In this document: positions 17,958 through 42,568 of the stretch, piece after piece | How the letters are laid out: the number at the start of each line of letters is the position of its first letter | How positions within the stretch are numbered: position 1 is the first letter of the stretch | DNA from: a virus | Taxonomy: Duplodnaviria; Caudoviricetes | Direction: 5' to 3' (one strand) | IMG/VR virus record: IMGVR_UViG_3300032677_000029 | Location: 148 to 64,147 of that record | DNA length: 64,000 nucleotides | Program-made: the position numbers and the translations under genes | Notes under the pieces: model-generated | What the model was told of the DNA's origin: nothing | Seen by the model: only the letters and a program-made list of their open reading frames with translations | Database searches by the model: none

Positions 17958-17962
17958 TATAT

Positions 17963-18025
17963 TTCCCGTTCGGGAAGATTTAGTTGTTTTTGCTTATTTT
18001 TTAGGCATTTATTCCCGTTCGGGAA
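17963..18025. repeat. Two copies of the dyad TTCCCG-TT-CGGGAA
   Basis: Exact 14-mers at 17963-17976 and 18012-18025. Confidence 0.8.
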
Positions 18026-18491
18026 ACTTTTTGTTTTTCCCTGTAGATTTAATTATTTTGTTTTTACAGGGAAATTTACTTTGTTTTTTTATACATATAG
18101 GTATCAATATGTATAGCGTTTTAGTACTTAGGGGTATCATTTTTATTAAAGTTTCATGCACTTTATGCCGGTCGATGTCACATGTTTGCACGGGTTTTTT
18201 ATTTGTAATCATAGGGTTACAGCATTCTTTTTTTGAGGTGGTTTTATAAAAAATATATACCCCCCGGGGGTGTTTGCACAGAAACATAAGGGGCCTTGTT
18301 CTAAGGGAAAACCCTAGGTACGTCTTGGCGGAAATTTATACCCCCTCCCCCGTTTAAAAAATCATAATCGTTTGAGCAAAATACAGCACAAGGTGCGAGC
18401 GGGTCCCATCATATCCATAATGGGGTGGTGGGGGTCAAGGAATAGGGGTTCGCCAAATACTGTCTGACAGTACGGGAAAATCAAATACCCC

Positions 18492-18520
18492 TTGACACAG
18501 GGCTAAGGTACAGGCACAAT
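18492..18520 (+). promoter_or_regulatory. Early sigma70 promoter P1
   Basis: TTGACA-N17-CACAAT upstream of the 18578 ORF. Confidence 0.75.
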
Positions 18521-18577
18521 AGAGTCATCGGTTCGGGACATATTGTTTACGACGATATCCTTACAAGGAGTTTTAAA

Positions 18578-19066
18578 ATGACTGTTAAATTAACTGTTCA
18601 AGAAGCATTGGCTCAATCTGTTGCAAACAACATCTTGACCGCAAGTAACGCAACACAGGCTATCGACAAGGACTGTCAAGCTATCCGCAAGGCACGCAAG
18701 AATAAGCCTTTAGGTACTGTCAAGAATGGTTGCGCCGTAATGATCCGTTTTGTAGAGGTATTGAGCAAAGCGGGTAAGGCTGAACAAACTGTCAAGAACT
18801 TAGCGACAGCGTTTCGCAAGGCAGTAAATGACGGCGTGCCATTCAGTATGAATGCATACCGCAAACCCGTAGCAAAGGGCGCACAGACTAGCCCTAAAGC
18901 AAAGGGCGCAAAGGTAGCTAGTGTGAACTTTAAGGGCGACGCAAGCGTTGATGACATTGTCAAGGGTTTACGCAACTTGTTTAATAAGTTCAAGACTGAT
19001 GACAAGACCGCAACTCTAGCCAGCTTCTTACTTGATGGATTAGATGAGTACGAAGAGAGCAAGTAA
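18578..19066 (+). CDS. First early gene: basic protein of unknown function (possible DNA-binding)
   Basis: 162 aa, AAGGAG RBS, own promoter and terminator; Lys/Ala-rich linker. Confidence 0.75.
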   Translation: MTVKLTVQEALAQSVANNILTASNATQAIDKDCQAIRKARKNKPLGTVKNGCAVMIRFVEVLSKAGKAEQTVKNLATAFRKAVNDGVPFSMNAYRKPVAKGAQTSPKAKGAKVASVNFKGDASVDDIVKGLRNLFNKFKTDDKTATLASFLLDGLDEYEESK

Positions 19067-19082
19067 TACCCGAGCAGTCAAG

Positions 19083-19110
19083 ACCCCGCCTAATAAGCGG
19101 GGTTTTTTTT
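19083..19110 (+). terminator. Rho-independent terminator
   Basis: ACCCCGC-CTAATAA-GCGGGGT followed by a T tract. Confidence 0.85.
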
Positions 19111-19302
19111 CGCCCTAAAATAGGGCAGGAACTGGTGTCATCTAGGTCGGCGAAGCCGACAGGTTTAAATTCTTTTTGCTCTTGCTTTTTCTTTTTGAAG
19201 GGCGTGATGAACAAGGTCAGCGAGGGTGCGGGCGAAGTCGGCGAGGCGCAACTAATAGGGTAAACCCTAACGAAATACTGTCTGACAGTACGAAACCAAC
19301 TT

Positions 19303-19732
19303 TGTTCACTGTGTTCACTCATGTTCACTGGTGAGTGAACAGACTTTTGGTGCGATGCAACACTCGCAAACCCTTGTTTTATATACTCTTTCTTTCTTTT
19401 ATTTATTATAATATTTAGTAGTGTTCACTTGTTCACTCACTTTTGAAATGTATGAAGGGTAAAATTTCCTGAGCCTTTACATTGTTAAGTTTGATACTGT
19501 CTGACAGTACGGCAGAAAGACCCTTTTCTTAGGTGTCATACTTTTGTTCACGAGTGAACATGACCCATTAAACTCTCGTAACCTATTGAATCCACAAGTA
19601 AATACCTTGTTCCTAAGCGAGTGAACATTGGTGAACAAAACCCCCAAACGAGTGAACAAAGTAGGCGAAGCCTTAACACAGTAAAGGGAGAGGAGAAATA
19701 AAAAAAGATGTTTTGAGTTTCTCGAGTGAACA
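19303..19732. other. Candidate replication origin: 12 TGTTCAC/GTGAACA iterons with an AT-rich tract
   Basis: TGTTCAC at 19303, 19312, 19322, 19422, 19430, 19545; GTGAACA at 19335, 19554, 19621, 19631, 19652, 19726; AT-rich ~19375-19420; no credible ORF. Confidence 0.65.
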
Positions 19733-19837
19733 AATCCCCCAAACATGAAACCAGTTTTTACAAGAAGCCCACCAACTGCACAACCCCACCGAACCCGAAT
19801 ACCGACCTGATTAAACCCGAGTAACCGAAAGACCCTA

Positions 19838-19866
19838 TTGACACAGCCTTGACATAGCGGTATAAT
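19838..19866 (+). promoter_or_regulatory. Early sigma70 promoter P2 (perfect consensus)
   Basis: TTGACA-N17-TATAAT. Confidence 0.9.
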
Positions 19867-20015
19867 AGAGGGGTAGAGTCGAGTTGAGTCAAGGGACACA
19901 ACAAAACCAAATACTGTCGGACAGTATTAGAAGCGGGAAACACCACGATTAAGTTCACGGGTGCAACGGGTAGGTAGCTACCCCAACAAGCTTTTAATCC
20001 TTGCCTCAATAGTAT

Positions 20016-20029
20016 CGTTCTTTAAAAAT
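20016..20029 (+). promoter_or_regulatory. boxA-like antitermination element
   Basis: CGTTCTTTAAAAAT resembles the rrn/lambdoid boxA (TGCTCTTTAACA), ~145 nt after the P2 start. Confidence 0.6.
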
Positions 20030-20038
20030 TAGTTAAAT

Positions 20039-20354
20039 GCTTAGCGGTGCGGGGGAATACAGACCCCAAACCAATGCTGAGTGCAGAGTAGGCGTAGCCT
20101 GAGTGTACGGCGAGCAGTATCTCTGCGGGTGTAATAAGTAATGGGAATGGGTAGGTTTTACTAAACCAACCGAAAAGGCGAAATACTGTCAGACAGTATC
20201 AGACCCTTAAAAACCTAACCCTTCCAACCACACTTTACTTATCCACCCCATGCCCTTAACCTCTAACAAGAACTGCGACAAACTAGCAGAGGGCAAACAA
20301 ACAAAGAGCGTTTTGAGGTCAGGTTAGAAATAGCCTGACTGATTGAGCGTTTTT
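20039..20354 (+). ncRNA. Structured leader RNA with five consecutive stem-loops
   Basis: Stems at about 20039-20082, 20083-20126, 20127-20248, 20251-20295 and 20304-20354 (GAAA tetraloop); ends at the AGGAGG RBS. Confidence 0.55.
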
Positions 20355-20368
20355 AAAAGGAGGTAGAA

Positions 20369-20464
20369 ATGAAGGAGATGTTATTAGTATGGCTTTGGGC
20401 AGTCATAGGGGTTTTTACCTATGTACTTTTTATGTGGACTTTGAAATTATTGGAGGTGTTATGA
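20369..20464 (+). CDS. Small single-pass membrane peptide (31 aa)
   Basis: Manually read MKEMLLVWLWAVIGVFTYVLFMWTLKLLEVL; strong AGGAGG RBS; ATGA overlap with the next gene. Confidence 0.65.
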   Translation: MKEMLLVWLWAVIGVFTYVLFMWTLKLLEVL

Positions 20465-20664
20465 AAAATATGTGTAGGTGTTGTGGAGATGAGTACCCTA
20501 TTGGTAGGTGGGAACTAGGCTATAAGTTTTGCCTAGACTGTGGGGTAGATATAGCAAAATCGGTGGCAGAGGGATTTACAGTAGCACCACTAAACAAATC
20601 AAACTACTACTATATCCACGACCCAAAAACCCTAAAAGAACTTAACCCTAAGAGGACAACATGA
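20461..20664 (+). CDS. C4 zinc-finger protein (DksA/TraR-finger-like)
   Basis: CRCCGDEYPIGRWELGYKFCLDC; GGAGG RBS before ATG 20461. Confidence 0.6.
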   Translation: MKNMCRCCGDEYPIGRWELGYKFCLDCGVDIAKSVAEGFTVAPLNKSNYYYIHDPKTLKELNPKRTT

Positions 20665-20870
20665 AAAAAGGTAACGACAACAAGGCTCTAATTAAAAAGA
20701 TGTTGGGAGATACGCTTGATGAGACTTTTGTACTTAGCGCCATCGAGATGTACTGCAACGAGATACTGTCAGACAGTACGGATTGGGGTAATAAATCCCT
20801 CATCAATCAAACCCTATGGCAGACGATAGCAAGTCAGAACCTAGCAATTATGGAGGAACACTACAAATGA
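20661..20870 (+). CDS. Hypothetical early protein
   Basis: 69 aa, GAGGA RBS, ATGA-coupled. Confidence 0.65.
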   Translation: MKKGNDNKALIKKMLGDTLDETFVLSAIEMYCNEILSDSTDWGNKSLINQTLWQTIASQNLAIMEEHYK

Positions 20871-21142
20871 GAGGGTACACGCAAAAGGAACGGCTAACAG
20901 TCGAACCAGTAATGACCCTCGAACAGATTGCTGACATTATGGGCATGAGTCGGGAAAGGGTGCGTCAGATAGAAGCAAGTGCATTGGGCAAGTGCCACAA
21001 GATACTACGCAGAAAGGGTTATTCCCCCGAGGATTTCTTTTCAGCCCTTAAATACACTAAACCTATCAAACCAAGCGAAACAGGCGAAGCAAGTGAATAC
21101 GAACTGATGTATGACAAGGAGGAAGAAGATGAGCGTAACTGA
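20867..21142 (+). CDS. Stand-alone sigma70 region-4 HTH protein
   Basis: MTLEQIADIMGMSRERVRQIEASALGK matches RpoD region 4.2. Confidence 0.85.
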   Translation: MRGYTQKERLTVEPVMTLEQIADIMGMSRERVRQIEASALGKCHKILRRKGYSPEDFFSALKYTKPIKPSETGEASEYELMYDKEEEDERN

Positions 21143-21395
21143 ATACAGAATGGGTAAACCCAAGACCTCTAAGGATAAACCCTTAAAGACAATTAGACAG
21201 AACTCACCCAATGAGCCAATGGAACTAACGGCTAAATTGGCGAAGGCGGACACGGCGCAAGCTAAGCGGGAACTGGTGTCGCTCGATATGGGTGGGCTTT
21301 TTTATGCGTTTGGGGAAAAGCGTAGGGCATGGCAAGGGTGGTTAAGTTATCAAGAAAACATGGGAGAAGAAAATGGCACTAAAACGACTAAATAA
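21129..21395 (+). CDS. Hypothetical early protein
   Basis: ORF with GGAGG RBS, coupled to its neighbours. Confidence 0.5.
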   Translation: MSVTEYRMGKPKTSKDKPLKTIRQNSPNEPMELTAKLAKADTAQAKRELVSLDMGGLFYAFGEKRRAWQGWLSYQENMGEENGTKTTK

Positions 21396-21663
21396 AAGTA
21401 ACAAGAAACAAACGGCTAAGTGGGCTTACTTGGGGGAAACAGACCCCGCACAGTTTATCCACAGCAACAAGACCCATCGGACTGTAAGCGAAGCGTTTAG
21501 AGATGCTGAGTATGCACAGTCTTTTTGGAAAAGTAAGACCGACTGGGAAGAAGCGGTTGAGTTCATAGAGTTAGCGGTTATTGGTGGTATGTGGACTCTA
21601 GTAGTAGGTGGTGCAGTTTTAGCAGTTCTGTATTGGTTAGCCAAGCCATTACTTGGCGGGTAG
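21373..21663 (+). CDS. Membrane-anchored early protein
   Basis: 96 aa with C-terminal hydrophobic helix. Confidence 0.65.
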   Translation: MALKRLNKSNKKQTAKWAYLGETDPAQFIHSNKTHRTVSEAFRDAEYAQSFWKSKTDWEEAVEFIELAVIGGMWTLVVGGAVLAVLYWLAKPLLGG

Positions 21664-21720
21664 TAAACGACATACTGTCAGACAGTATTTAACAACATCT
21701 TTTAAATTAGGAGAATCAAA

Positions 21721-22683
21721 ATGAGTTTAGATATGTACAAGCACTTTAAAGAACGTTACGACAATACCAAGCCCATTCGTGGCAGAGCAGTAGAGTGCAA
21801 ACCAATCGCCAAGCGAGCACGAGATTGGGAACAAGTAGTTAAGCGCTATGTAGTAGAAGACGGCGCACTTGAGACGGAAGGTGTAATGGCATACGGCGCA
21901 CACCTATACCAAACCGACTGCGTTATGTATATGCCAAACGGAGATGTGCATATAAAGACAGGTGGGTACGCTACCCCAACAACGGCGGAGTTTATCGAAA
22001 GATATATACCTCGTGATATGCGTTGCTATAAGAAATACAATAAAGTTTGGTTGGACTACAAGGGTCAGGCTTATCCAATCGACTCGACCAAACCAACAAT
22101 CCTAGCCTACAACAAGTTTATAGATACCTATGCTATCGAGAACCCACTACCAGTACATCAAAAAGTTATCGACAGAACCAAGATTAAAGAGGCTCGAGAG
22201 AAACTAAATGCGTTCCGTAACTATGCCAAGATCATGCTTAAACTTGCTGATGGGTGGTTAAGTAATGACCTAGTAGAGCTACACGCAGAGCCACATGGAC
22301 AACATAGGGACTATTGGGGTCGTAGAGCATACAGGCTAGGTGATGAAGTAATGCGTAGCTATGAGATGTCAGGGTCAGTAAGTATCAAGACAGCAGAGAA
22401 AGTATACGAAGCCCTAAGCACCGAAGACGAAACGCAATTCCCTAAACTTCTTTGTCTAATCTGTTCGGGTAGTGATGCCGAGGAAAATCGAGTAGTTAAG
22501 ACAGAGCAAGTAGAGCGCAAAGACTATCGAGGCAATCCGATAATGGAGACGATCACGACTAGGGAATACAAGTATAAGTACACGACTGTCGATAATCGTA
22601 TCAACTTCTTTATTAAGAAAGCGTGTGATGTGTACACAACTAAGGTAGTCCCTGCGGGTAAGGTAATGACAAACCTATTATGA
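21721..22683 (+). CDS. Hypothetical early protein (320 aa)
   Basis: Long ORF with AGGAG RBS. Confidence 0.8.
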   Translation: MSLDMYKHFKERYDNTKPIRGRAVECKPIAKRARDWEQVVKRYVVEDGALETEGVMAYGAHLYQTDCVMYMPNGDVHIKTGGYATPTTAEFIERYIPRDMRCYKKYNKVWLDYKGQAYPIDSTKPTILAYNKFIDTYAIENPLPVHQKVIDRTKIKEAREKLNAFRNYAKIMLKLADGWLSNDLVELHAEPHGQHRDYWGRRAYRLGDEVMRSYEMSGSVSIKTAEKVYEALSTEDETQFPKLLCLICSGSDAEENRVVKTEQVERKDYRGNPIMETITTREYKYKYTTVDNRINFFIKKACDVYTTKVVPAGKVMTNLL

Positions 22684-22690
22684 GTGGGTA

Positions 22691-22719
22691 TTGACACAGG
22701 GGTAGCTTAGCTGTATAAT
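22691..22719 (+). promoter_or_regulatory. Early sigma70 promoter P3 (perfect consensus)
   Basis: TTGACA-N17-TATAAT; shares TTGACACAG with P1 and P2. Confidence 0.9.
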
Positions 22720-22839
22720 AGTAGTATAAGTTATAAAAGTAGTAGAAGTTAGTGGGGTCGTAGCCTAATACTGTCAGACAGTATTGGGTTTTTTGTTTAG
22801 TAGGTTTGTATTTTTTAATTTTAAAACAAGGAGAAGTAT

Positions 22840-23949
22840 ATGAGTATCAAGTTCGGAAGTTCTTTATCTTTAAACGAGTTCGCCAATGCTATCGCAACTG
22901 TTGGCTCTGATGTAACCATTATCGGTCAGGGAGAGCCCGGGATTGGTAAGTCTAGTATGTTAAAGACTGTTGCCAAGCGATTCCCTGATTACGAGCTAGC
23001 CTATATCGACTGTACCTTATTAGACCTAGGTGACTTTGCCCTTCCGTATACGGAACTGGCTTCAGGGGATAGTAACTTAAAAGTTACCAAGTTCGCACCA
23101 AACGCAAGGTTTAAATTTCAATCGGGCAAGCCTGTAATCGTTATGCTTGATGAGATTGGTAAGGCTATGAAGGCGGTTAAGAATGTCCTTCTTACCTTGA
23201 TGTTGGAAAAGCGTATTGGTGATGTAGCTTTACCCGAAGGCTCAATCGTGTTTGGTACAACTAACCTAGCAACTGATGGGGTAGGTGATTCGTTAGAGGC
23301 TCATGCTCGGAATCGTGTTTGCTTTGTGACTGTGCGTAAACCCCATGCTGGCTTTGGTGCTGATGGCTCACTCGATGCAGACTCTTGGGGTGCTTGGGCG
23401 GTTGAGAATGATATTGCACCTGAGATTATTGCGTGGGTTAAACAATTCCCTCATGCACTCGAGTCGTATACTGACCCTGCTCAAAAAGATAATGCGTACA
23501 TCTTTAACCCAACTAAGGCGGGACAGTCAGCATTTGTAACCCCTCGGTCCTTGGAGAAAGCAAGCCATATCTCTAAGAAGCGTGCATTACTGGGTGACTC
23601 TGTAACTATCTCGGCTTTGGCGGGTACTATCGGTGAGAGTGCGGCTCGTGATATGCAAGCGTTCTTTACTGTGGTAGATAAGCTACCTACATGGGAAGCA
23701 ATTATGGATAGCCCTGCAACTGCAAAAGTTCCTGATGATGCGGTAGCTAAATGTATCTTAGTGTTCTCAGCTATTACTCGTGTGGATAAGGAGTCGTTAC
23801 CTAAGTGGCTTAAGTATGCAGATAGATTAGACAAAGAACTTCAAGCGTTGTTTGCTCGTAGTGTGGTGAAGTCTTCATCTAAGCAAGCTATGGCGGTGTC
23901 CAATAAAGAGTTCGTGAAGTGGGCTACTGATAACCAATGGTTGTTTTAA
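22840..23949 (+). CDS. AAA+ ATPase (MoxR/AAA_5-like)
   Basis: GEPGIGKS Walker A, VMLDE Walker B, GTTN sensor 1, RNR Arg finger, TPRS sensor 2. Confidence 0.9.
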   Translation: MSIKFGSSLSLNEFANAIATVGSDVTIIGQGEPGIGKSSMLKTVAKRFPDYELAYIDCTLLDLGDFALPYTELASGDSNLKVTKFAPNARFKFQSGKPVIVMLDEIGKAMKAVKNVLLTLMLEKRIGDVALPEGSIVFGTTNLATDGVGDSLEAHARNRVCFVTVRKPHAGFGADGSLDADSWGAWAVENDIAPEIIAWVKQFPHALESYTDPAQKDNAYIFNPTKAGQSAFVTPRSLEKASHISKKRALLGDSVTISALAGTIGESAARDMQAFFTVVDKLPTWEAIMDSPATAKVPDDAVAKCILVFSAITRVDKESLPKWLKYADRLDKELQALFARSVVKSSSKQAMAVSNKEFVKWATDNQWLF

Positions 23950-23983
23950 ATACTGTCAGACAGTATTAACTAAGGAGAAACAA

Positions 23984-25174
23984 ATGACTAAACTAACAGC
24001 AGAACAACGAGTGCAGAAGTCCCATGTGGCTTTGATGAATGACCCTAAGTATTGTTTGTACTCGGGTATCTTCATGCTCGGTAAGACGGAGGTAAGTGAT
24101 GATATTCCAACGGCTTGTACTGATGGGCGCAACACTTACTATGGTCGTAAGTTTGTGGATAACATGAAAGACTCAGACTTAAAAGGTTTGATCTTGCACG
24201 AGAATCTACACAAGGCTTTCCGTCATACAACAGTATGGAAACATCTTTATAAACAACAGCCCCAACTAGCTAACATGGCGTGTGATTTTGTAATCAACTT
24301 AATGATTCATGATTCAGACCCACAAGGTAATGCTGTGACTCTACCCGAGGGCGGTTGCTTAGATGAGAAGTATCGTGGCATGGATGCGGGGGAGGTATTC
24401 AGAACTTTAATGCAACAAGCAAAACAAGGGGGTGGTAGTGGAAAAGGCGATGGTAGTGGCGAGGGCGAACAAGAGGGTGGCTCGGGCTTTGACGAACACG
24501 ACTGGGAGGGTGCAGATGCCTTGTCCGAAGATGAGAAACAAACATTGGCTCGTGAAGTCGATCAAGCATTAAGACAGGGCGCACTACTAGCGGGTAAGCT
24601 AAATGGTAATGTACCACGAGAGATTACTGAGGCGATGGAAGCTAAGGTTAATTGGAAAGAAGTATTGAGAGACTTTGTATCCTCTATCTGTGCGGACAAG
24701 GATAACTCTACATGGCGCAGACCAAGCCGTAGGTGGGTAGATCAAGATATTTATATGCCTAGTTCAATCGGTGAAGCGGTAGGTCGCATTGTTATAGCGA
24801 TTGATATGTCAGGGTCGATTGGGCAAGCCGAGGTCGGGCAATTCTTAGGTGAACTATTAAGTATCTGTAACCATGTTCAGCCCGAGGGTATTGACTTGAT
24901 GTATTGGGACACAGAGGTATGTGCTCATGAGAAGTATGACCGAGGGGATTACGAGGCTATCCTTTCATCTACTAAACCTATGGGCGGTGGAGGTACAACT
25001 GCAAGATGTATTCCCAAGTATATCGAGGCTCACAAACTTAATCCCGAGTGTGTGATTGTCTTAACCGATGGCTATATAGATGGTTGGGGTGACTGGAAAC
25101 ATCCTGTCTTTTGGGGTATGACTAGCCACATGGTTGCACCTGTCGGTATTAGTGTTCGTATCGAGGGGGAATGA
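23984..25174 (+). CDS. Metallopeptidase-like + VWA domain protein (DUF2201-like)
   Basis: TACTDG, HENLH (HExxH), DMSGS MIDAS, GGGT and LTDG motifs. Confidence 0.85.
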   Translation: MTKLTAEQRVQKSHVALMNDPKYCLYSGIFMLGKTEVSDDIPTACTDGRNTYYGRKFVDNMKDSDLKGLILHENLHKAFRHTTVWKHLYKQQPQLANMACDFVINLMIHDSDPQGNAVTLPEGGCLDEKYRGMDAGEVFRTLMQQAKQGGGSGKGDGSGEGEQEGGSGFDEHDWEGADALSEDEKQTLAREVDQALRQGALLAGKLNGNVPREITEAMEAKVNWKEVLRDFVSSICADKDNSTWRRPSRRWVDQDIYMPSSIGEAVGRIVIAIDMSGSIGQAEVGQFLGELLSICNHVQPEGIDLMYWDTEVCAHEKYDRGDYEAILSSTKPMGGGGTTARCIPKYIEAHKLNPECVIVLTDGYIDGWGDWKHPVFWGMTSHMVAPVGISVRIEGE

Positions 25175-25422
25175 TGGCTATTGTAAATAGAGATGATATG
25201 AAGTCTATATTAGAAGAAAGTATGGGTGCTATTTTCGAGGAGGTTTATTCCCAACATGGGCATATAGAGTATCGGTTAGAACAATGCGGTAAGTTATATC
25301 GAGTAAAAAAAACCCTGTGGGGTAATAACCTAAGACCCGAATATAAAACAGGTTGGTTAAAACTAAACGAAGCACAAGCAATTTTAAAACTAATGGAGGT
25401 AAGTGAAGATGGCACAGCCTAG
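25171..25422 (+). CDS. Hypothetical early protein
   Basis: 83 aa, ATGA-coupled. Confidence 0.6.
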   Translation: MMAIVNRDDMKSILEESMGAIFEEVYSQHGHIEYRLEQCGKLYRVKKTLWGNNLRPEYKTGWLKLNEAQAILKLMEVSEDGTA

Positions 25423-25615
25423 AGATTTTGCAACATTGATGGTGAAGATAGATACACGCAAGAAGTTTATAGAGTCAAAGAAGAAGATGGAGGGTCAGCT
25501 AGGGGTAACTCTAACCAACTCAAACGCATTAGATATTATGTGTGACCAAATACTGTCAGACAGTACGAAGTTAACTTTAAAGTTAGTACCAATTAAACAA
25601 GGAGAATTAAAATGA
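25409..25615 (+). CDS. Hypothetical early protein
   Basis: GGAGG RBS, MAQPRD start. Confidence 0.6.
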   Translation: MAQPRDFATLMVKIDTRKKFIESKKKMEGQLGVTLTNSNALDIMCDQILSDSTKLTLKLVPIKQGELK

Positions 25616-26451
25616 TTGGAAGCAACGCTATGTTAGTCGACCTCAACATCTCTATGTGGACAGGTCGCAAGATGGACAAGAAAGTATCTGAAGAAGTAGA
25701 TGTAAGCAAGAGCACTAAGGCTCGTGCGGGTAACTATCACAAGAACTTATTGGCAGGGTCAGATAAGCTAGATAAGATTCAAAAGGTTGTTACTGCGGTG
25801 CGTGCATGGAACTACCAACAAACCTTACCTTGGTCAGATGGTGGCTCACGCTTACTACCTATGAAATCTTTTTTTGATTACAAGGCTACGCTTGGTAACT
25901 ATGAAGCGCAGTACAACACGGCGGTAGATGAGTTCTTAGAGGAATATCCGCAACTGGTTTCATCTTCTGCGTTTACGCTTGGGGAACTTTTTGATCGTGG
26001 GGAATATCCCACAGCCGATAGCTTGCGTTCTAGGTTTGGGTTTAAGTATGTGTTCTGCCCTGTCCCTGATGCGGGTGATTTTAGAATAGATGTTGAGGAA
26101 ACGGCTAAGCAAGAACTACAACAACAATACAAAGACTACTACGAAGGCAAGCTGGCTGATGCTATGAAAGATGCTTGGGATAGATTGCACAAGACCCTGA
26201 CCCATCTAAGTGATCGTATGGATTACACAGATGAGAATAAAAAGAAGTTTTGGGATTCAACTATCACCAACGCAAGCGAACTCTGCGGACTTCTTACAAG
26301 TCTTAATGTGACTAATGACCCTAAGTTAGAAGCTATGCGTCAGAAGTTAGAGAAGGCTTTGGCGGGTGTAGAGCCATCACATATCAAAGAGTCCGAAGCT
26401 ATCCGTAGTTCGGTTAAGTCTAAGGTAGATGAAATTCTAAATATGTTTTAA
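25612..26451 (+). CDS. Conserved helical early protein (DUF3150-like)
   Basis: TLPWSDGGSRLLP...YP...PVPDAGDFR...LNVTNDP; AAGGAG RBS. Confidence 0.65.
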   Translation: MIGSNAMLVDLNISMWTGRKMDKKVSEEVDVSKSTKARAGNYHKNLLAGSDKLDKIQKVVTAVRAWNYQQTLPWSDGGSRLLPMKSFFDYKATLGNYEAQYNTAVDEFLEEYPQLVSSSAFTLGELFDRGEYPTADSLRSRFGFKYVFCPVPDAGDFRIDVEETAKQELQQQYKDYYEGKLADAMKDAWDRLHKTLTHLSDRMDYTDENKKKFWDSTITNASELCGLLTSLNVTNDPKLEAMRQKLEKALAGVEPSHIKESEAIRSSVKSKVDEILNMF

Positions 26452-26461
26452 GGAGAGAGGG

Positions 26462-26641
26462 ATGATTACTTTATTTGTGGTTGGATATATTGTTTATATG
26501 TTTGTTGGGATTATGGCTATTGGTCATTTACTTGAGAAGTATTTAAACGATGATAAAACTTGCGTTGGATGCTGGCACTTATTGTTTGGGTATGTGTGGA
26601 CATTTTTACCTATAACTTTATTTTTTGATTTTAGGGGGTGA
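26462..26641 (+). CDS. Small membrane protein (59 aa)
   Basis: Manually read MITLFVVGYIVYMFVGIMAIG..., two hydrophobic segments, AAGGAG RBS. Confidence 0.55.
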   Translation: MITLFVVGYIVYMFVGIMAIGHLLEKYLNDDKTCVGCWHLLFGYVWTFLPITLFFDFRG

Positions 26642-26642
26642 A

Positions 26643-27059
26643 ATGGGATATCGAAGCGAAGTAGGGTTTTGTATTGAGTTTACTAAAGACCCCGAGGAGT
26701 TTGTTGCACTGATGCGAGTAGATGGTAGAGATGCGTTTAAAGACTTCTTACTTTATATGTATGTTGAAGAACTACCTAATGCCACACCCGAAGAAGAAGA
26801 GCCGTATGGGTATGTGCATTTCTATCACAATCATTGGAAGTGGTATGAGGATTCGGTTTCGGGGTTTAATGACTTAATAAACATGGCTGAGGAGTTTGAT
26901 GATAAGTTTAAGGCTAAGTTCGTTAGGCTTGGAGAGGAAGCAGACGATACAGAAGAAGAATGGTATAACGACGATAACTATGAACTAGAGTATCCCTATA
27001 TGATTAGATCAATAGATACAGGGGTAAAGCTAGAAAACCTAAAGAAAGTGGAGGAATAA
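26643..27059 (+). CDS. Acidic hypothetical protein
   Basis: MGYRSEV start; WKWY and FVRLGEE motifs. Confidence 0.7.
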   Translation: MGYRSEVGFCIEFTKDPEEFVALMRVDGRDAFKDFLLYMYVEELPNATPEEEEPYGYVHFYHNHWKWYEDSVSGFNDLINMAEEFDDKFKAKFVRLGEEADDTEEEWYNDDNYELEYPYMIRSIDTGVKLENLKKVEE

Positions 27060-27060
27060 A

Positions 27061-27870
27061 ATGCTACAACTAAACAACATAGATAAGACACAACTAAGCG
27101 AGCCTGTTGCTCAATTCTTAAATGCAATAGAGTTAAAGCACGCAAAACTACAATACTGTCTGACAGTATCGGCAATTCAAAATCCAACCCGACCTGAGTT
27201 TTGGCAGTTAAGGTTTGAGGATACCCGCTTCCTTGGTGACTCTTCAATAGATCATGTAGGCACAGTCGAGTGGACATATGGTAGCCGTAGCGAGAAAGAA
27301 TATAAGGTTACATCTCGCAGGATTCAGAATGATCGGTTTGGGCATTGGGGTAACGAGCACGCATCTCGTCGCTCTAAAGACATGAAGAAAGCCTTAAAGA
27401 TTGCGGTGGAAACTATATCCCCATTTGAGTGGCACGAGATTAGTAATAAGGGCAGACGCCATGCAGAACAAGCACATGAAGGCTGGGCAAGAAAAGACCA
27501 AAAAGCCATACACCCTTTTTCTAGTGTGGGGTACGAGAAGATATACGAAGAGATTAAGTACCTTGTAGGCATGGGAATTCAATTCAAAACTCAGGAGTTT
27601 AAAAATGCGGCAGCCGGAATGGAAGCCTACGAAGAGTTCCAACGCAAGATAGCAGTAAGGGCTAAGTTCGATACAGTAATAGTGCGCCCCGATAAAGCCG
27701 TATACATTCCCGATGGTCGTGCCTTAGAAGCTAAAGAGTTTGGCGCAGTTGAGGCGCTACCTGACAATACCAGAACTGGTATCGCTCTTCTAAAACTTGT
27801 TGGTAAAGACGAGCTATTACCCGAGGTAGGATACCGTAGTGGGGAAAACACCTACTTCCTTTTGGTTTGA
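27061..27870 (+). CDS. Hypothetical early protein (269 aa)
   Basis: Long ORF with GGAGG RBS. Confidence 0.75.
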   Translation: MLQLNNIDKTQLSEPVAQFLNAIELKHAKLQYCLTVSAIQNPTRPEFWQLRFEDTRFLGDSSIDHVGTVEWTYGSRSEKEYKVTSRRIQNDRFGHWGNEHASRRSKDMKKALKIAVETISPFEWHEISNKGRRHAEQAHEGWARKDQKAIHPFSSVGYEKIYEEIKYLVGMGIQFKTQEFKNAAAGMEAYEEFQRKIAVRAKFDTVIVRPDKAVYIPDGRALEAKEFGAVEALPDNTRTGIALLKLVGKDELLPEVGYRSGENTYFLLV

Positions 27871-33165: not shown

Positions 33166-33335
33166 TGGATTACTCAGGGTTTTTATTAGAAGCAAGAAAG
33201 TACTTGAAATTATACGAAGAAGCTGTTATAAATCGTAGCTATAAAGAAGCACAAGAGCACGCATTAAATGCGTTTGCTGAAGTTAGATTACTTGTACATA
33301 TAGCGAAAGACTTACAGGATGTCAGAAAAAACTAA
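33165..33335 (+). CDS. Small hypothetical protein (56 aa)
   Basis: Manually read MDYSGFLLEARKYL...; TAATG coupling with polA. Confidence 0.55.
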   Translation: MDYSGFLLEARKYLKLYEEAVINRSYKEAQEHALNAFAEVRLLVHIAKDLQDVRKN

Positions 33336-33513
33336 TCCGTGGCAATCGGATATGACCCAACAAGAGGTCGCCGATGCTTTGGGTACTACAAGACAGGTAA
33401 TTCAAGATATAGAGAAAAGAGCGTTGCGTAAACTAAGGAATGAATTGCGTAAACGTGGCTATACATTAGATGATTTTTTTACATACAAAAAGAAGAGGAT
33501 ACCAAAAATATGA
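33319..33513 (+). CDS. Second stand-alone sigma70 region-4 HTH protein
   Basis: MTQQEVADALGTTRQVIQDIEKRALRKLR. Confidence 0.8.
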   Translation: MSEKTNPWQSDMTQQEVADALGTTRQVIQDIEKRALRKLRNELRKRGYTLDDFFTYKKKRIPKI

Positions 33514-39486: not shown

Positions 39487-42348
39487 ATGTTAGATATAAA
39501 TAATTTTCTATCCACAGTGCTCCCCAATACTGGGTCGTATTGTGTGGTGGGATTAAAAGAAGATGGAAGCCCAAGACAAAAGTTTGTGGGAAGTATTGAG
39601 GAAGTAAATGTATTAGCACAGAAATTAGTTGACGAACAATATAACGCTTATTTTGCTTTAGCTTCATTTACCGATCCTAAAGAAGGCAGAACTGCGAAGA
39701 ACGCACAGTCTTTAAAGTCTTTCTTTGTTGACATTGATTGTGGTGTGGGTAAACCCTATGCTGACCAAGCAGAAGGTATGACTGCGCTTAAAACATTTAT
39801 TAAAGCCACAAAGCTACCTAAACCTACAGTAGTTAATTCAGGTCGTGGGATACACGTATACTGGGTATTAGAAGCGGCTTTGCCAAGCACGGAATGGAAA
39901 CCCTTAGCAGAGAAATTCAAAGCCCTATGTGCTCAGCATAAGTTTGAGGCTGACCCTTCTGTCACTGCGGACTCTGCACGCATACTACGAATTCCGGGGA
40001 CTTTTAACTACAAAGACGTTGAGAATCCAGCTAAAGTTGAAATGGTACTTTCAGCTCCTCAGGTGAGTATCTCTATCCTACAAGATGTTTTTAATACCGT
40101 CGAGCAAGACATCTTTGCTGGTATGGCTGGTCAGCCGTTTATTCCTCGTCAGATGGATGCCATGACCCTAGCATTAATGGGCAACAATATCTCTCGTTTT
40201 AAGACCATCATGGTTAAAAGCGCCCAAGGAGAAGGTTGTCCACAATTACTACATATTTATGAGAATCAGGCGACAATAGATGAGCCGCTTTGGAGGGGAG
40301 GACTAAGTATTGCCCAACAATGTGTGGATAGGGATAAAGCCATTCATACGCTCTCTAATAAACACCCTGATTATTCTGCGTCTGCTACTGAACGTAAGGC
40401 TAATGAGACTAAAGGTCCTTATACCTGTGCGACATTTAAGAAGTTAAATCCAACACCTTGCCAAGGTTGTCCACATAACATTACTTCTCCTATTCAATTA
40501 GGTAAAGAGTTTAACGAGGCTAAAGAAGAAGACAATACAGTTGAGGTTGCCGCCGAGGAAGAAGGCGAAGAAGCTACGATTTATAAGATTCCTAAGTTTC
40601 CATTCCCATATACAAGGGGTGCGGCTGGTGGTATCTATACCAAAATTAAAGATGAAGAAAGCGGTTTAGAAGAAGTACAAATGATTTACCCTTATGACTT
40701 CTATGCAGTTAAGCGAATGAATGACCCTGATAGAGGGGAAAGCGTTTTACTACGTTTGCATTTACCAAAGGATGGGGTTAAAGAATTTATCATGCCGTTG
40801 ACTGATGTACTAGCAACGGATAGATTTAGAGACACTATTGCCAAACATGGTGTAGCAGTTATGGCAACTAAACAGAAGATACTTATGGCATATATAACAA
40901 GATGGGTAGAAGAATTGCAATCTACAACAGAAGCAGAACTAGCACGTAAACAGTTTGGCTGGCTACCTGACGATTCGGGATTCATTCTTGGAGACAAAGA
41001 AATTACGGCAGATGTAGTTAAGTACAGCCCACCAACAGCTTCAACTATTGAGCTTGTACCGATGTTTAGAGAGAAGGGTGACTTCCACGTTTGGAAAGAC
41101 GTCATCAATGCGTATGCTAGAGAGCATATGGAAGCCAAGGCTTTTGCGTTCTTTATGGGTTTTGGCAACACGCTACTTAAGTTCACCAACTTAAAAGGCT
41201 ATTTACTCAGTCTTAAATCACAAGGCTCAGGCTCAGGAAAGACTACAGTACTGCACACGATTGGTAGTATTTATGGACACCCCGAAGATAGCTTTATGCG
41301 GGTTAAGGATACATATAATCAAAAGCTACAACGCATCGGTACATTTCAAAACATCCCCATCTTATTTGATGAGATGACAAACATGGATCCACAACAGAAG
41401 TCTAACTTGGCTTACGATATTACTGAGGGTCGTGCTAAGAACCGTATGCAGTCACAGAACAATGCAGAACGCCTAAACCATACCAAGTGGGCAACGGGGC
41501 TAATCACTACATCGAATAGGTCTTTGCGGGATGACTTGCTTTCTATTAAGGCTTTTCCCGAAGGCGAACTAATGCGTATGATGGAGTTGCATATCTTTAA
41601 TGACGCTAACGATGATCCATTATGGGCAAGGCAACACTTTGGAAGATTACATACTAACTACGGACACGCTATATTTCCATTCATGCAGTATGTGGTTGGG
41701 CATCTGCCGGAAGTTATTAAGTTCCTAAACGACATTCAAATTAAGATTGAGGCTGCGGCGGGGATTACTTCACAAGAACGCTACTGGTCAGCTATGGCGG
41801 CAATCTCCATTACTGGTGGAATTATTGCTAAGAACCTAGGCTTACATGATATTGACCACAAACCTGTAATGGCTTATATCGTCAAGCATATTAAAGAGTC
41901 TAGGGCGCAGAACAAGCAGATGGTATCTGAGAATAGCGACTTCTTAAGCGGCTTTATCCAACGCAAGTTCCATGAGGTGCTAGTTATTAACGGCAAGAAA
42001 GACCACAAAACGGGCTTGGAGACTGGTCCGATTAGAGAACCAAGGGGTGCATTGACTGCACGCTACGAGCCTGATACAAAGCTTCTGTATGTGGTTGCTA
42101 AGGAATACCGCGCTGAGTGCAATAAATCTCAGCTAAACTTTGATGAATCCTTATCTATGCACAAGAAGAGTGGGGCTTACTTGGGTCAAAAACGCAAGCG
42201 TATGACCTCGGGAACTATAGTAGATACTAACTTGAACGCACCAGCCCTAGTATTTGATGCGACTAAACTGGAGTTCTTTAGGGAAGAAGCATTATTAAAT
42301 GTTAAAGATTCTGAAGCAGATAGTTTTGATTCCGTGGAAACGGTTTGA
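39487..42348 (+). CDS. Primase-helicase (AEP/RepB-like primase, Cys-rich domain, DUF927-type helicase)
   Basis: FFVDID and SGRGIHVYW primase motifs; YTC...CQGC; GSGSGKTT Walker A; LFDE Walker B. Confidence 0.85.
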   Translation: MLDINNFLSTVLPNTGSYCVVGLKEDGSPRQKFVGSIEEVNVLAQKLVDEQYNAYFALASFTDPKEGRTAKNAQSLKSFFVDIDCGVGKPYADQAEGMTALKTFIKATKLPKPTVVNSGRGIHVYWVLEAALPSTEWKPLAEKFKALCAQHKFEADPSVTADSARILRIPGTFNYKDVENPAKVEMVLSAPQVSISILQDVFNTVEQDIFAGMAGQPFIPRQMDAMTLALMGNNISRFKTIMVKSAQGEGCPQLLHIYENQATIDEPLWRGGLSIAQQCVDRDKAIHTLSNKHPDYSASATERKANETKGPYTCATFKKLNPTPCQGCPHNITSPIQLGKEFNEAKEEDNTVEVAAEEEGEEATIYKIPKFPFPYTRGAAGGIYTKIKDEESGLEEVQMIYPYDFYAVKRMNDPDRGESVLLRLHLPKDGVKEFIMPLTDVLATDRFRDTIAKHGVAVMATKQKILMAYITRWVEELQSTTEAELARKQFGWLPDDSGFILGDKEITADVVKYSPPTASTIELVPMFREKGDFHVWKDVINAYAREHMEAKAFAFFMGFGNTLLKFTNLKGYLLSLKSQGSGSGKTTVLHTIGSIYGHPEDSFMRVKDTYNQKLQRIGTFQNIPILFDEMTNMDPQQKSNLAYDITEGRAKNRMQSQNNAERLNHTKWATGLITTSNRSLRDDLLSIKAFPEGELMRMMELHIFNDANDDPLWARQHFGRLHTNYGHAIFPFMQYVVGHLPEVIKFLNDIQIKIEAAAGITSQERYWSAMAAISITGGIIAKNLGLHDIDHKPVMAYIVKHIKESRAQNKQMVSENSDFLSGFIQRKFHEVLVINGKKDHKTGLETGPIREPRGALTARYEPDTKLLYVVAKEYRAECNKSQLNFDESLSMHKKSGAYLGQKRKRMTSGTIVDTNLNAPALVFDATKLEFFREEALLNVKDSEADSFDSVETV

Positions 42349-42542: not shown

Positions 42543-42568
42543 AACCCCGCTTCGGCGGGGTTTTTTTT
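42543..42568 (+). terminator. Terminator at the convergence of early/replication and late transcription
   Basis: AACCCCGC-TTCG-GCGGGGTT followed by a T run. Confidence 0.9.

Follow-up and report, generated by a model that had tools for sequence, protein, structure and literature searches.

Perfect dyads in the early region of an uncultured lake phage suggest a new operator system with a predicted dimeric early regulator

Plasmid RK2 carries about a dozen perfect OA and OB palindromes for KorA and KorB, with a free central base, lying near to and far from promoters and in some cases within genes. KorB belongs to the ParB family and KorA is a known HTH protein. In phage lambda, Cro is the first early product, and its palindromic operators overlap promoter cores, number six and are imperfect. 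A third system comes from the cluster A mycobacteriophages (L5 gp71, TipsytheTRex), whose stoperators are described as asymmetric 13-bp sites in fixed orientation to transcription (PMC9283540). The repressor is a monomer with two DNA-binding domains (an HTH and a Stoperator domain) that serves about 26 sites genome-wide in temperate phages. Most stoperators keep off promoter cores, frequently in short gaps between genes, and they are thought to halt elongating RNA polymerase (PMC9283540, PMC6550527).

The DNA analyzed here, called the window, is a stretch of 64,000 nucleotides from the 64,147-bp record of an uncultured lake phage. The window contains 11 exact matches to the perfect 15-bp dyad TACTGTCnGACAGTA, at positions 18458, 19276, 19495, 19912, 20184, 20764, 21673, 22769, 23951, 25551 and 27154. 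The chance expectation is 0, and 100 of 100 shuffled controls contained none. A search allowing up to two mismatches returned the same 11 dyads and nothing more (0.30 expected), and a scan of the whole record, junction check included, found none beyond the 11. The base at -1 is A in 11/11 copies, the base at +1 is C or T, and the center is T, A or G. Lone half-sites are scarce, with 4 extra TACTGTC and 2 extra GACAGTA. These scans bear out a first-pass annotation made from the letters of the window, which had given the 11 coordinates, their absence elsewhere, the preceding A and the variable center. The annotation also pictured a protein coating the early DNA. The dyads span 18458-27168 of the 64,147 bp, and 11 dyads over 9 kb mark points and do not form a coat.

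The best reading of this locus is that the dyads, together with g1, the first early gene, form a new phage early-regulator operator system whose regulator is predicted to be dimeric and DNA-binding. As in cluster A, there are many near-identical short sites, mostly off promoter cores, and the site motif and apparent reader specificity (the repressor there, g1 here) diverge together among related phages. However, the sites in the window are all perfectly palindromic and stay within the early 9 kb, whereas those of cluster A are asymmetric and genome-wide. The g1 protein lacks detectable similarity to any PDB chain, so no homology to gp71 or TipsytheTRex was found, and a search of + strand genes showed no integrase. 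The locus resembles RK2 in having about a dozen short perfect palindromes at varied promoter distances and, as proposed, one small controller of the regulon, but the genome here is that of a phage and not a plasmid, g1 has no Pfam family, and no partition genes were seen. The likeness to Cro and lambdoid immunity is in a first early product that, as we propose for g1, turns down early promoters with a specificity that differs among relatives. The difference is that there are 11 perfect sites here, and none lies on a promoter core.

The placement of the dyads is established by the map of the early region. Dyad 1 (18458-18472) ends 19 nt 5′ of the -35 element (18492) of P1, the g1 promoter, a sigma70-like TTGACA-17-CACAAT sequence on the + strand (18492-18520; 10/12 consensus). 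The P1 architecture is kept upstream of g1 homologs in relatives. The g1 gene (18578-19066, + strand) encodes 162 aa, and the co-variation of its translation with dyad type makes it the proposed dyad binder. An intrinsic-terminator-like hairpin followed by T8, CCCCGC-loop-GCGGGG-TTTTTTTT (19084-19110, + strand), closes the g1 unit; it was read directly from the letters and is not in the list that gave the promoter-like sites. Dyad 2 (19276-19290) stands directly 5′ of the first iteron cluster, and dyad 3 (19495-19509) lies within the iteron region. The iterons (TGTTCAC / GTGAACA) and AT-rich sequence at 19296-19745, also read from the sequence, are a probable replication origin, and different iterons occupy the equivalent place in relatives.

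P2 (19838-19866, + strand) is a perfect sigma70 consensus promoter (12/12). Dyad 4 (19912-19926) is at about +39 to +53 from the inferred P2 start, and dyad 5 (20184-20198) is at the end of the conserved, ORF-free P2 leader. Dyad 6 (20764-20778) lies within a 69-aa gene (20661-20870), where it encodes ILSDS, and dyad 7 (21673-21687) is 33 nt 5′ of the ATG (21721) of a 320-aa gene. A second perfect consensus promoter, P3 (22691-22719, + strand; 12/12), is upstream of the AAA ATPase gene, and its -10 box is kept in most relatives. Dyad 8 (22769-22783) follows at about +43 to +57 from the inferred P3 start, 56 nt before the start codon at 22840. Dyad 9 (23951-23965) is 18 nt 5′ of the ATG (23984) of a DUF2201/VWA gene. 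Dyad 10 (25551-25565) is inside g12 (25403-25615), again encoding ILSDS, and 46 nt before a DUF3150 gene that starts at 25612. The last copy, dyad 11 (27154-27168), is within a 269-aa gene (27061-27870) and encodes YCLTV. A strong sigma70-like promoter, P4 (27867-27895, + strand; 11/12 consensus), lies 3′ of it, and the genes downstream of P4 are dyad-free. The first-pass annotation had three in-gene copies in two reading frames, distances to P1, P2 and P3, and sites unlike classical promoter-core operators; the translations and the promoter scan agree with all of this, and 0 sites overlap a promoter core. Repression from such sites would therefore require a road-block or a mechanism acting at a distance.

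Relatives were drawn from IMG/VR and metagenomes, giving 80 loci and, with the window, 81 sources. The same kind of element occupies the same places in them: close to the first promoter, in the vicinity of the iteron origin, and immediately 5′ of the ribosome sites of early genes. Of the sites, 133/270 are at most 60 nt upstream of a predicted start, vs 1745/7794 random positions. Whole records of five relatives hold 9-14 copies each, most of them within a single stretch of 7-9 kb; one record has 2 outliers. Replacement by lineage is established as well, as more than 10 dyad types (half-sites TAATGTC, TACCGTC, TATAGTC, TCAAGTC, TTAAGTC, TTAAGTA, TACTAC-nnn and others) occur at equivalent positions. 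In 145 unique type-A sites, for which the search itself fixed the arms, the palindrome reaches AA...TT, or 9+1+9 bp, the center varies freely (A 94, T 39, C 8, G 4), and none is followed by a -10-like element. In-gene copies alter the encoded protein so as to fit the lineage's own dyad. Because the same codons in type-B relatives read KIMSDII (ATAATGTCnGACATTAT) in place of QILSDS, the suspicion that selection acts on nucleic acid rather than protein is upheld. Near-miss sites are rare, 16 unique vs 261 perfect (the latter count not de-duplicated), and 8/16 are the site at g1's own promoter. Among 16 type-A loci, 6 have a perfect homolog of dyad 1, 9 a homolog with one mismatch and 1 a homolog with two, at varying positions.

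The N-terminal domain of g1 co-segregates with dyad type across relatives. Its identity within a type is at least 47% (median 72%), and between types the median is 28% and the maximum 62%. To contrast, the C-domain mixes freely between types, with up to 92% identity. Loci L054 (TCAAGTC) and L059 (TATAGTC) form a natural swap pair: they are collinear, with aligned blocks at 82-95% DNA identity, yet all 8 dyads of one and all 7 of the other differ, and neither locus holds a copy of the other's type. Alignment fails over several stretches, including L054 6093-6403, the g1 N-domain. Most ORFs that L054 shares with L058/59 are 77-98% identical but g1 only 52%, and L054 g1 is 80% identical to that of the other type-E locus. 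The Zn-ribbon protein g3 of L054 is 60% identical to L058/59, 74% to type-D L027 and 43% to type-E L049. By these alignments, the g1 N-domain appears as the one lineage-linked replacement between L054 and L059. Locus L106 (type K) has a type-A-like backbone (AAA 88%, g1 C-domain 70%) with a g1 N-domain at just 41%. The co-variation of the relatives' dyads with the first-gene protein, which the first-pass annotation had foreseen, is thus established by the N-domain identities, L054/L059 and L106.

The dyad TTAAGTA accompanies two g1 N-domain backbones that are about 25% alike, both with I-x-V-Y-L at the start of helix 4, and two unrelated backbones thus converge on one dyad. L135 combines a D/E-like g1 backbone and TACTGTC dyads with T and N at the type-A positions. 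The proposed reading position in helix 4 is T in 15/15 type-A sequences caught by the pattern, and V or I in 4/4 type-B sequences. Three type-A sequences outside the pattern were read by eye; L012 and L109 have T, but L101 has H, a counter-point to the proposed position. The g1 family is present in the odd dyad class only, and since the odd/even divide is the deepest split of the AAA tree, this distribution amounts to a single event.

In the g1 protein, a disordered, Lys-rich linker joins a basic four-helix N-domain (aa 1-93, net charge +8) to a helical hairpin at the C-terminus, the end of which is acidic. The AF2 model (pLDDT 78.9 overall, about 88 in the N-domain) has four helices, including a helix at 53-64, a turn, and a helix at 69-85. 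No match to g1, whether to HTH families or to any other, was found in Pfam or PHROGs, making it an orphan family. A profile of 18 g1 sequences run against all PDB chains with E up to 10 returned MscS alone (E 1.5). In a fold search the top matches (KaiA and a TetR-family protein) had Z 6.5 and were non-discriminating, and the Atlas score was 0.82 at most. Membership in the ParB/KorB family was considered and rejected, as no Pfam domain, ParB N-terminal (ParBc) included, was matched in g1 or the other early proteins searched.

There is about an even chance that the dyads are double-stranded DNA operators of a phage-encoded dimeric early regulator, the g1 product, which would repress or road-block early transcription. 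Direct binding by g1, dimer formation and the repressive effect are all three steps that we infer, and road-block silencing is our best guess at function. The N-terminal four-helix domain would read the half-site, probably with the beginning of helix 4 (aa 69-75; there the window has QTVKN). Produced first, from its own promoter P1 and a unit closed by its own terminator, g1 would accumulate and fill the perfect sites 40-55 nt downstream of P2 and P3, as well as those in the origin area and immediately 5′ of the ribosome sites of early genes. This occupancy would turn down or road-block early transcription, and genes beyond the last dyad, driven by P4 (27867), would escape g1 control. Delayed autoregulation would result because the site at the promoter of g1 itself is often weakened by one mismatch. 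Protein specificity and all sites would have been changed together repeatedly by lineage, as in immunity groups.

A bolder version is tentative and, on balance, doubtful. Here, g1 would bind DNA through a new fold and a simple code open to evolution, with half-site positions 2-4 and 7 dictated by a few residues where helix 4 begins. In lytic freshwater phages it would serve as a lineage-specific self-mark on early DNA, for timing early genes and for silencing or excluding co-infecting relatives with the same mark. If this is true, immunity-like diversification has been driven in phages that never lysogenize, and ten or more natural orthogonal protein-operator pairs exist.

The operator reading with g1 as reader must be weighed against others. 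It is unlikely that the dyads are DNA sites read by another early protein, a virion-injected protein or a host factor, with g1 merely co-evolving or linked. The lack of a known DNA-binding fold in g1 speaks for such a reader, and g12 is one candidate. In RHH proteins two chains intertwine as a homodimer through an antiparallel N-terminal beta-ribbon. The g12 protein is predicted to form an RHH-like homodimer (ipSAE 0.51 vs 0.00 for the best of 3 controls), a mark reached by 20/30 proteins solved as pairs and 1/23 solved as single chains. In the homodimer runs at least 72% of contacts agree, pLDDT is at least 64, and residues 10-16 of both chains pair, although Pfam gave no RHH match; the Atlas lead scored 0.89. 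Like g1, the g12 family is confined to the odd dyad class and is divergent in L106 (32%). Yet types D, F and G, for all their different dyads, share one and the same putative DNA-facing strand in g12, and two strand forms (..MVR, ..MVQ) occur within type B. As readers of the dyads, neither a MarR-like protein nor the RHH-like g12 fits. Both type-E loci stop directly past the AAA gene, leaving room for a second co-switching gene that may lie further downstream in that swap.

Of the three binders named by the first-pass annotation, it is the first gene at 18578 that co-varies with the dyad. The sigma4-like proteins are not supported as readers, since many relatives with dyads lack them; they were found in 16/81 sources and are absent from the fully covered type-A L068 and all B-G loci. 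In addition, g28 is absent from L004, L005, L006 and L008, and g27 from L004. Different dyads occur in phages whose AAA genes are 98% identical, which a host factor cannot account for. A motif scan of bacterial genomes found the extended dyad not enriched, with 7 single copies in 185,579 species' genomes, about chance level by our own estimate.

We also think it improbable that the dyads act as RNA hairpins in early transcripts (processing sites, 5′/3′ stabilizers, attenuators or translational operators), alone or bound by an RNA-recognizing protein, possibly g1. Half of the sites are within 60 nt upstream of gene starts, as an RNA element might be, and the center base has a strand bias (A 94 vs T 39). 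In the even class the Shine-Dalgarno sequence (AGGAG) is central in TTAAC-N4-GTTAA, which would suit a translational operator. Dyad 8 is lengthened into a 13-bp stem followed by a T-run (22762-22800, + strand), a terminator-like hairpin in the P3 leader that folds at -15.5 kcal/mol (z -4.4), and this extended arrangement is kept in types A, B and E. Some copies thus have an RNA-level face. However, ordinary copies fold weakly (-5 to -6.5 kcal/mol), and an invariant stem with a free loop is the reverse of usual RNA-protein recognition. Copies within a genome have no compensatory or wobble variation, and the dyad-1 variants disrupt pairing instead of preserving it. Dyad 1 is upstream of the P1 -35 element, dyads 2 and 3 are beyond the terminator in the origin region, and the flanks continue the palindrome symmetrically on either side.

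In T4-type phages, promoter-early stem-loops serve as module boundaries at which recombination is promoted. A similar role for the dyads in shuffling early genes, with no dedicated reader, is very unlikely. The early region is mosaic, and type-A BLAST alignments end within 15 bp of a dyad in 24/170 cases vs 6.2 expected, but this enrichment mostly reflects gene borders because dyad-free gene boundaries gather nearly as many ends (5.6 vs 8.7 per boundary). Palindromy, lineage-wide concerted replacement and co-variation of the g1 N-domain would be left unexplained.

Least probable of all is that the dyads are N4-like hairpin promoters for an injected virion RNA polymerase, or host SOS operators. 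The early promoters of N4 are hairpins used by a virion-packaged RNA polymerase, with a start about 11 nt downstream of the hairpin center. The 6-bp stem and 3-nt loop of the dyad recall them, and the best cultured matches of the AAA ATPase (about 26% identity) are in N4-like phages, but in many relatives the Shine-Dalgarno sequence is 2-5 nt after the dyad or inside it, so there is no space for a start downstream. Strong sigma70 promoters already serve the early region, PHROGs recognized no RNA polymerase among the large virion proteins, and the 1846-aa virion protein matched only families of unknown function. The LexA SOS box of Gammaproteobacteria is CTGT-N8-ACAG, and the window dyads have the half-site letters TACTGT / ACAGTA in common with it, as the first-pass annotation had pointed out. 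That likeness is coincidental and the SOS operator is rejected, because all 11 copies are TACTGT-CnG-ACAGTA, with 3 nt between half-sites in 11/11 instead of 8. A motif set by the host regulator should also hold steady across phages of related hosts, whereas relatives with 84-98% identical AAA genes differ in their dyads, and sister lineages use TAATGT, TATAGT, TTAAGT and other unrelated half-sites.

Exact matches to the dyad TACTGTCnGACAGTA number 11 in the window, all between 18458 and 27168, and shuffled sequence contains 0. Allowing up to two mismatches added no further copies in the window, and lone half-sites outside the dyads were rare in a scan of the whole record. The window is nearly all of the 64,147-bp virus record, and the other 147 bp contribute no dyad. 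The first-pass annotation had located the same 11 copies and confined them to the early region, and the exact, mismatch and whole-record scans bear this out. Translation likewise confirmed its three dyads lying within genes in two reading frames, and its distances from dyads to promoter-like sites and start codons held.

The record has the look of a podovirus-type phage found in lake metagenomes; among the runs listed for it are 20 lake or freshwater DNA runs and no RNA run. An early gene block of 24 kb occupies the plus strand (18.5-42.3 kb, from the ORF map), and searches of the encoded proteins place the structural genes on the minus strand. The plus-strand block opens with g1 (18578-19066), a stand-alone 162-aa gene with its own promoter P1 (-35 at 18492) and its own terminator. 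An iteron and AT-rich region, the probable replication origin, follows, then promoter P2 (19838-19866) with a 500-nt ORF-free leader, small genes, promoter P3 (22691-22719), and the AAA ATPase, DUF2201/VWA and DUF3150 genes. P2 and P3 are perfect sigma70 promoters. The strong promoter P4 (from 27867) is 3′ of the last dyad and ahead of genes for a resolvase, DNA polymerase A, an SNF2 helicase, a nuclease and a DUF927 primase-helicase, which hold 0 dyads. No integrase was seen among the plus-strand proteins searched, and Rfam and tRNA scans of the window gave no match at the gathering threshold. Nucleotide search matched no cultured phage. By large terminase the closest cultured phages are Pelagibacter phages HTVC027P/023P, DSL-LC04, 023Pt_psg01 and MinM2/Pag-Yong1 (48-56%), and the first 50 kb of DSL-LC04 contain no repeated dyad.

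An AAA ATPase search gathered 80 IMG/VR loci at 66-95% identity. The window's own dyad (type A, half-site TACTGTC) is present in 16 of the 80, at 3-13 copies per locus. Other loci carry different perfect dyads of equal build: TAATGTCnGACATTA, TACCGTCnGACGGTA, TATAGTC(n)GACTATA, TCAAGTCnGACTTGA, TTAAGTCnGACTTAA, TTAAGTAnTACTTAA and CCCGTAnTACGGG. In a second clade the dyads are even-spaced (TTAAC-N4-GTTAA, TTATCAnnTGATAA, TAAACCnnGGTTTA and TTAAACnnGTTTAA), and later searches added TACTACnnnGTAGTA, TTCTAACnGTTAGAA and TAACGTCnGACGTTA. Five whole type-A records have 9-14 clustered copies each, with 9-12 inside one 7-9 kb stretch; one of the five has two extra dyads downstream of the cluster. In the type-A locus L012, an extra dyad (18569-18587) abuts the ATG of the winged-helix gene pair g27/g28, 8 kb past the AAA gene, and the whole record has one more dyad beyond it.

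Dyad positions are homologous across types. One place is ahead of the first gene's promoter and another is behind that gene's terminator; further dyads are interspersed with the iterons. The promoter that precedes the AAA gene has a dyad 25-45 nt past its -10 box, and at the AAA, VWA and DUF3150 genes dyads stand immediately 5′ of the ribosome site. Sites within 60 nt upstream of a predicted start account for 133 of 270 dyads, compared with 1745 of 7794 random positions. A dyad inside the small gene g12 (25403-25615) covers codons that read QILSDS in type A and KIMSDII in type B (half-site TAATGTC); the protein sequence has given way to the DNA motif. In L026, L063 and other loci with the even-spaced dyad TTAAC-N4-GTTAA, the dyad centre at gene starts is AGGA(G), placing the Shine-Dalgarno sequence inside the dyad (TTAACAGGAGTTAATAAAATG).

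A symmetric protein dimer on double-stranded DNA fits the dyads better than an RNA element does, for several reasons. First, across 145 type-A sites with differing flanks the palindrome reaches outward (A at -1 in 138, T at +15 in 116, A at -2 in 107, T at +16 in 83), and the centre base is free. Second, dyad copies show no compensatory or wobble changes; near-misses are rare (16 unique against 261 perfect copies, the latter not de-duplicated) and disrupt pairing instead of keeping it. Third, ordinary copies fold weakly as RNA (-5 to -6.5 kcal/mol), and dyad 1, at 18458, is upstream of a -35 box. The 145 sites share no conserved element 3′ of the dyad. That dyads, or at least some copies, act at the RNA level is nevertheless kept as a rival explanation. 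The P3-leader dyad is lengthened to a 13-bp stem followed by a T-run (-15.5 kcal/mol), similar stem extensions occur at this position in types A, B and E, and the even class often has its Shine-Dalgarno at the dyad centre. The RNA-level face of some copies is thus real.

The leading candidate for the protein that would bind the dyads as DNA is g1. Plus-strand ORFs of all loci were clustered, and the families were then checked for following dyad type. The N-terminal domain of g1 is at least 47% identical within a type (median 72%), against a median of 28% between types. The C-terminal domain mixes freely, with up to 92% identity between types D and E and as little as 27% within type A. The stand-alone first gene had been among the binders proposed in the first-pass annotation, and judged by sequence its N-domain does seem to follow the dyad.

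The clearest apparent case of co-variation, a natural swap, involves the type-E locus L054 (half-site TCAAGTC) and the type-D loci L058 and L059 (TATAGTC), its nearest neighbors in a quick AAA tree with SH-aLRT support. Their DNA aligns in collinear blocks of 82-95% identity, interrupted by several unaligned stretches, one of which (L054 6093-6403) encodes the g1 N-domain. All 8 of the 8 dyads of L054 are type E and 0 are type D; flanks are nearly identical and the dyads themselves exchanged. Most shared ORFs are 77-98% identical, whereas g1 of L054 is 52% identical to that of L058/L059 and 80% to that of the other type-E locus. The zinc-ribbon gene g3 is also low, at 60% to L058/L059, and is closer to a type-D locus than to the type-E one. 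Both type-E contigs stop shortly after the AAA gene, and a second gene that switches together with the dyad may lie beyond their ends. A second case, the type-K locus L106, pairs a type-A-like backbone (AAA 88%, VWA 81%, g1 C-domain 70%) with TACTACnnnGTAGTA dyads, and its g1 N-domain reaches only 41%. L053 was discarded as a swap case; its overall divergence is too great.

Convergence was analyzed in 50 distinct g1 sequences. Two N-domain backbones that are about 25% alike both accompany TTAAGTA and have I-x-V-Y-L in common at the start of predicted helix 4. L135 combines a D/E-like g1 backbone with TACTGTC dyads, and has T and N at the same two positions as type A. At the first of these, T is found in 15 of 15 type-A sequences matched by the pattern, and V or I in 4 of 4 type-B sequences. 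Three type-A sequences missed by the pattern were read by eye and have T in two and H in one (L101). AlphaFold predicts an N-domain of four helices at about 88 pLDDT, including residues 53-64, a turn and 69-85; a Lys-rich linker, predicted to be disordered, joins it to a helical hairpin at the C-terminus. The N-domain is basic overall, with net charge +8. Searches found no family, solved relative or convincing fold match for g1; a large protein collection held 146 relatives, with a Pfam domain in 0 of the 120 listed. The proposed dyad system rests on an orphan protein family.

Loci with even-spaced dyads have another, non-homologous first gene of equal size and place (cluster 26), which shows no profile similarity to g1 (hhalign probability 0.3%). 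The restriction of g1 to the odd-spaced class was set aside as evidence, being a single phylogenetic event confounded by phylogeny.

Other candidate binders were rejected or weakened by their distribution or by lack of co-variation: g12, g27, g28, g3 and the sigma4-like proteins. Two small proteins (20867-21142 and 33319-33513) contain little beyond a sigma-70 region 4 helix-turn-helix (Pfam E 5e-10 and 3e-8). As binders they fail on patchy distribution, occurring in only 16 of 81 sources and missing from the fully covered type-A locus L068 and all type B-G loci, and the sigma4 mimic suggested earlier falls with them. Neither the MarR-like g28 nor the small winged-helix-like g27 is present in every type-A locus; several lack them. 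For the 70-aa g12 product an RHH-like homodimer is predicted. It scores 0.51, against 0.00 for the best control; among proteins of solved structure, 20 of 30 known as pairs and 1 of 23 known as single chains attain that mark. Separate runs share at least 72% of contacts, and pLDDT is at least 64. Speaking against g12 as the binder, the strand that would face DNA does not differ among types D, F and G and has two forms within type B. The 67-aa g3 product (20461-20664; CxxC...CxxC) is present in 59 of 81 sources and in both dyad classes. It has no Pfam match, and its cysteine spacing resembles that of DksA/TraR-type fingers.

As the first gene, g1 has its own promoter and terminator. Perfect dyads occur at about +40 to +55 of both of the strongest promoters, near the origin on its two sides and in between early genes, and the genes behind the last dyad have a promoter of their own. 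Under the proposed mechanism the g1 product would occupy these dyads and dampen the early region by stopping elongation. We infer this downward direction. Of 16 type-A loci, 6 keep a perfect dyad at the g1 promoter, 9 show a single mismatch there and 1 shows two, at varying positions. Among near-misses counted in the window and the first 80 loci, 8 of 16 are this dyad. Such an arrangement is what one would expect if an early regulator occupies its strong sites first and reaches its own promoter last.

The KorA/KorB regulons serve as a comparison. The dyad system would work like them but is no member, since its sites are symmetric and regional and its protein is unrelated. It would also work like stoperator regulons, and differs from them in the same respects. 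Blocking of elongation is the action proposed for the stoperator-binding repressors of Cluster A mycobacteriophages (PMC9283540). Protein specificity and the full set of sites seem to have been replaced together more than once. This resembles immunity-group evolution (PMC6550527) and may reflect selection against cross-regulation between co-infecting relatives.

The resemblance of the half-sites to those of LexA, raised in the first-pass annotation, is coincidental, since neither the spacing nor the variation between lineages fits and the extended dyad has only 7 single-copy matches in the genomes of 185,579 species. By our estimate this is about the chance number, which also removes a host operator. 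Alignment ends are enriched at dyads, mostly a gene-border effect, and dyads as recombination boundaries were dismissed.

If g1 does read the dyads, an abundant uncultured lake phage group carries a previously unannotated regulator family. Its natural variants would supply a ready-made series of matched protein-site pairs, with which the concerted change of DNA-recognition specificity and a dozen dispersed sites could be tested directly. Immunity-like specificity groups could then evolve in apparently lytic phages, and g1-dyad pairs could serve as orthogonal repressor-operator parts. The finding also offers a concrete handle (P1-g1, P2, P3, the origin and P4) on the temporal programme of phages not yet growable.

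Several neighboring elements were also observed. The probable origin (19296-19745) has many TGTTCAC/GTGAACA copies flanking an AT-rich stretch; its iteron octamer is similar to the type I iterons to which the alpha primase-helicase of phage P4 binds. In relatives the equivalent place has different iterons, and the 953-aa DUF927 protein (39487-42348) is a candidate origin binder. The ORF-free P2 leader (19873-20370, about 500 nt) has blocks conserved across types A, D, E, F and G (CGCTCTTTAACAA..AAATGC, GTGCAGAGTAGGCGTAG and GAGCAGTAYCTCTGCGG), with GCAGAG complementary to CTCTGC. Its appearance suggests a structured non-coding RNA or a primer transcript for replication; Rfam gave no match to it at the gathering threshold, only a sub-threshold isrA (E 0.1). 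On the minus strand, a 1846-aa virion-block protein (42567-48107) has an HExxH-like motif (VLHETVHGF) and PHROG matches only to families of unknown function. At 18401-18436, 20-55 bp upstream of dyad 1, GGGTCCCAT and then a G-rich run (GGGGTGGTGGGGGTC) occur once in the window. Most odd-class lineages keep this element in front of g1; it could act as a packaging or boundary signal or mark a genome end. Finally, two identical hairpins (TTCCCGTTCGGGAA), 50 bp apart, lie at 17962-18025 in the divergent intergenic region between the late (minus) and early (plus) blocks.
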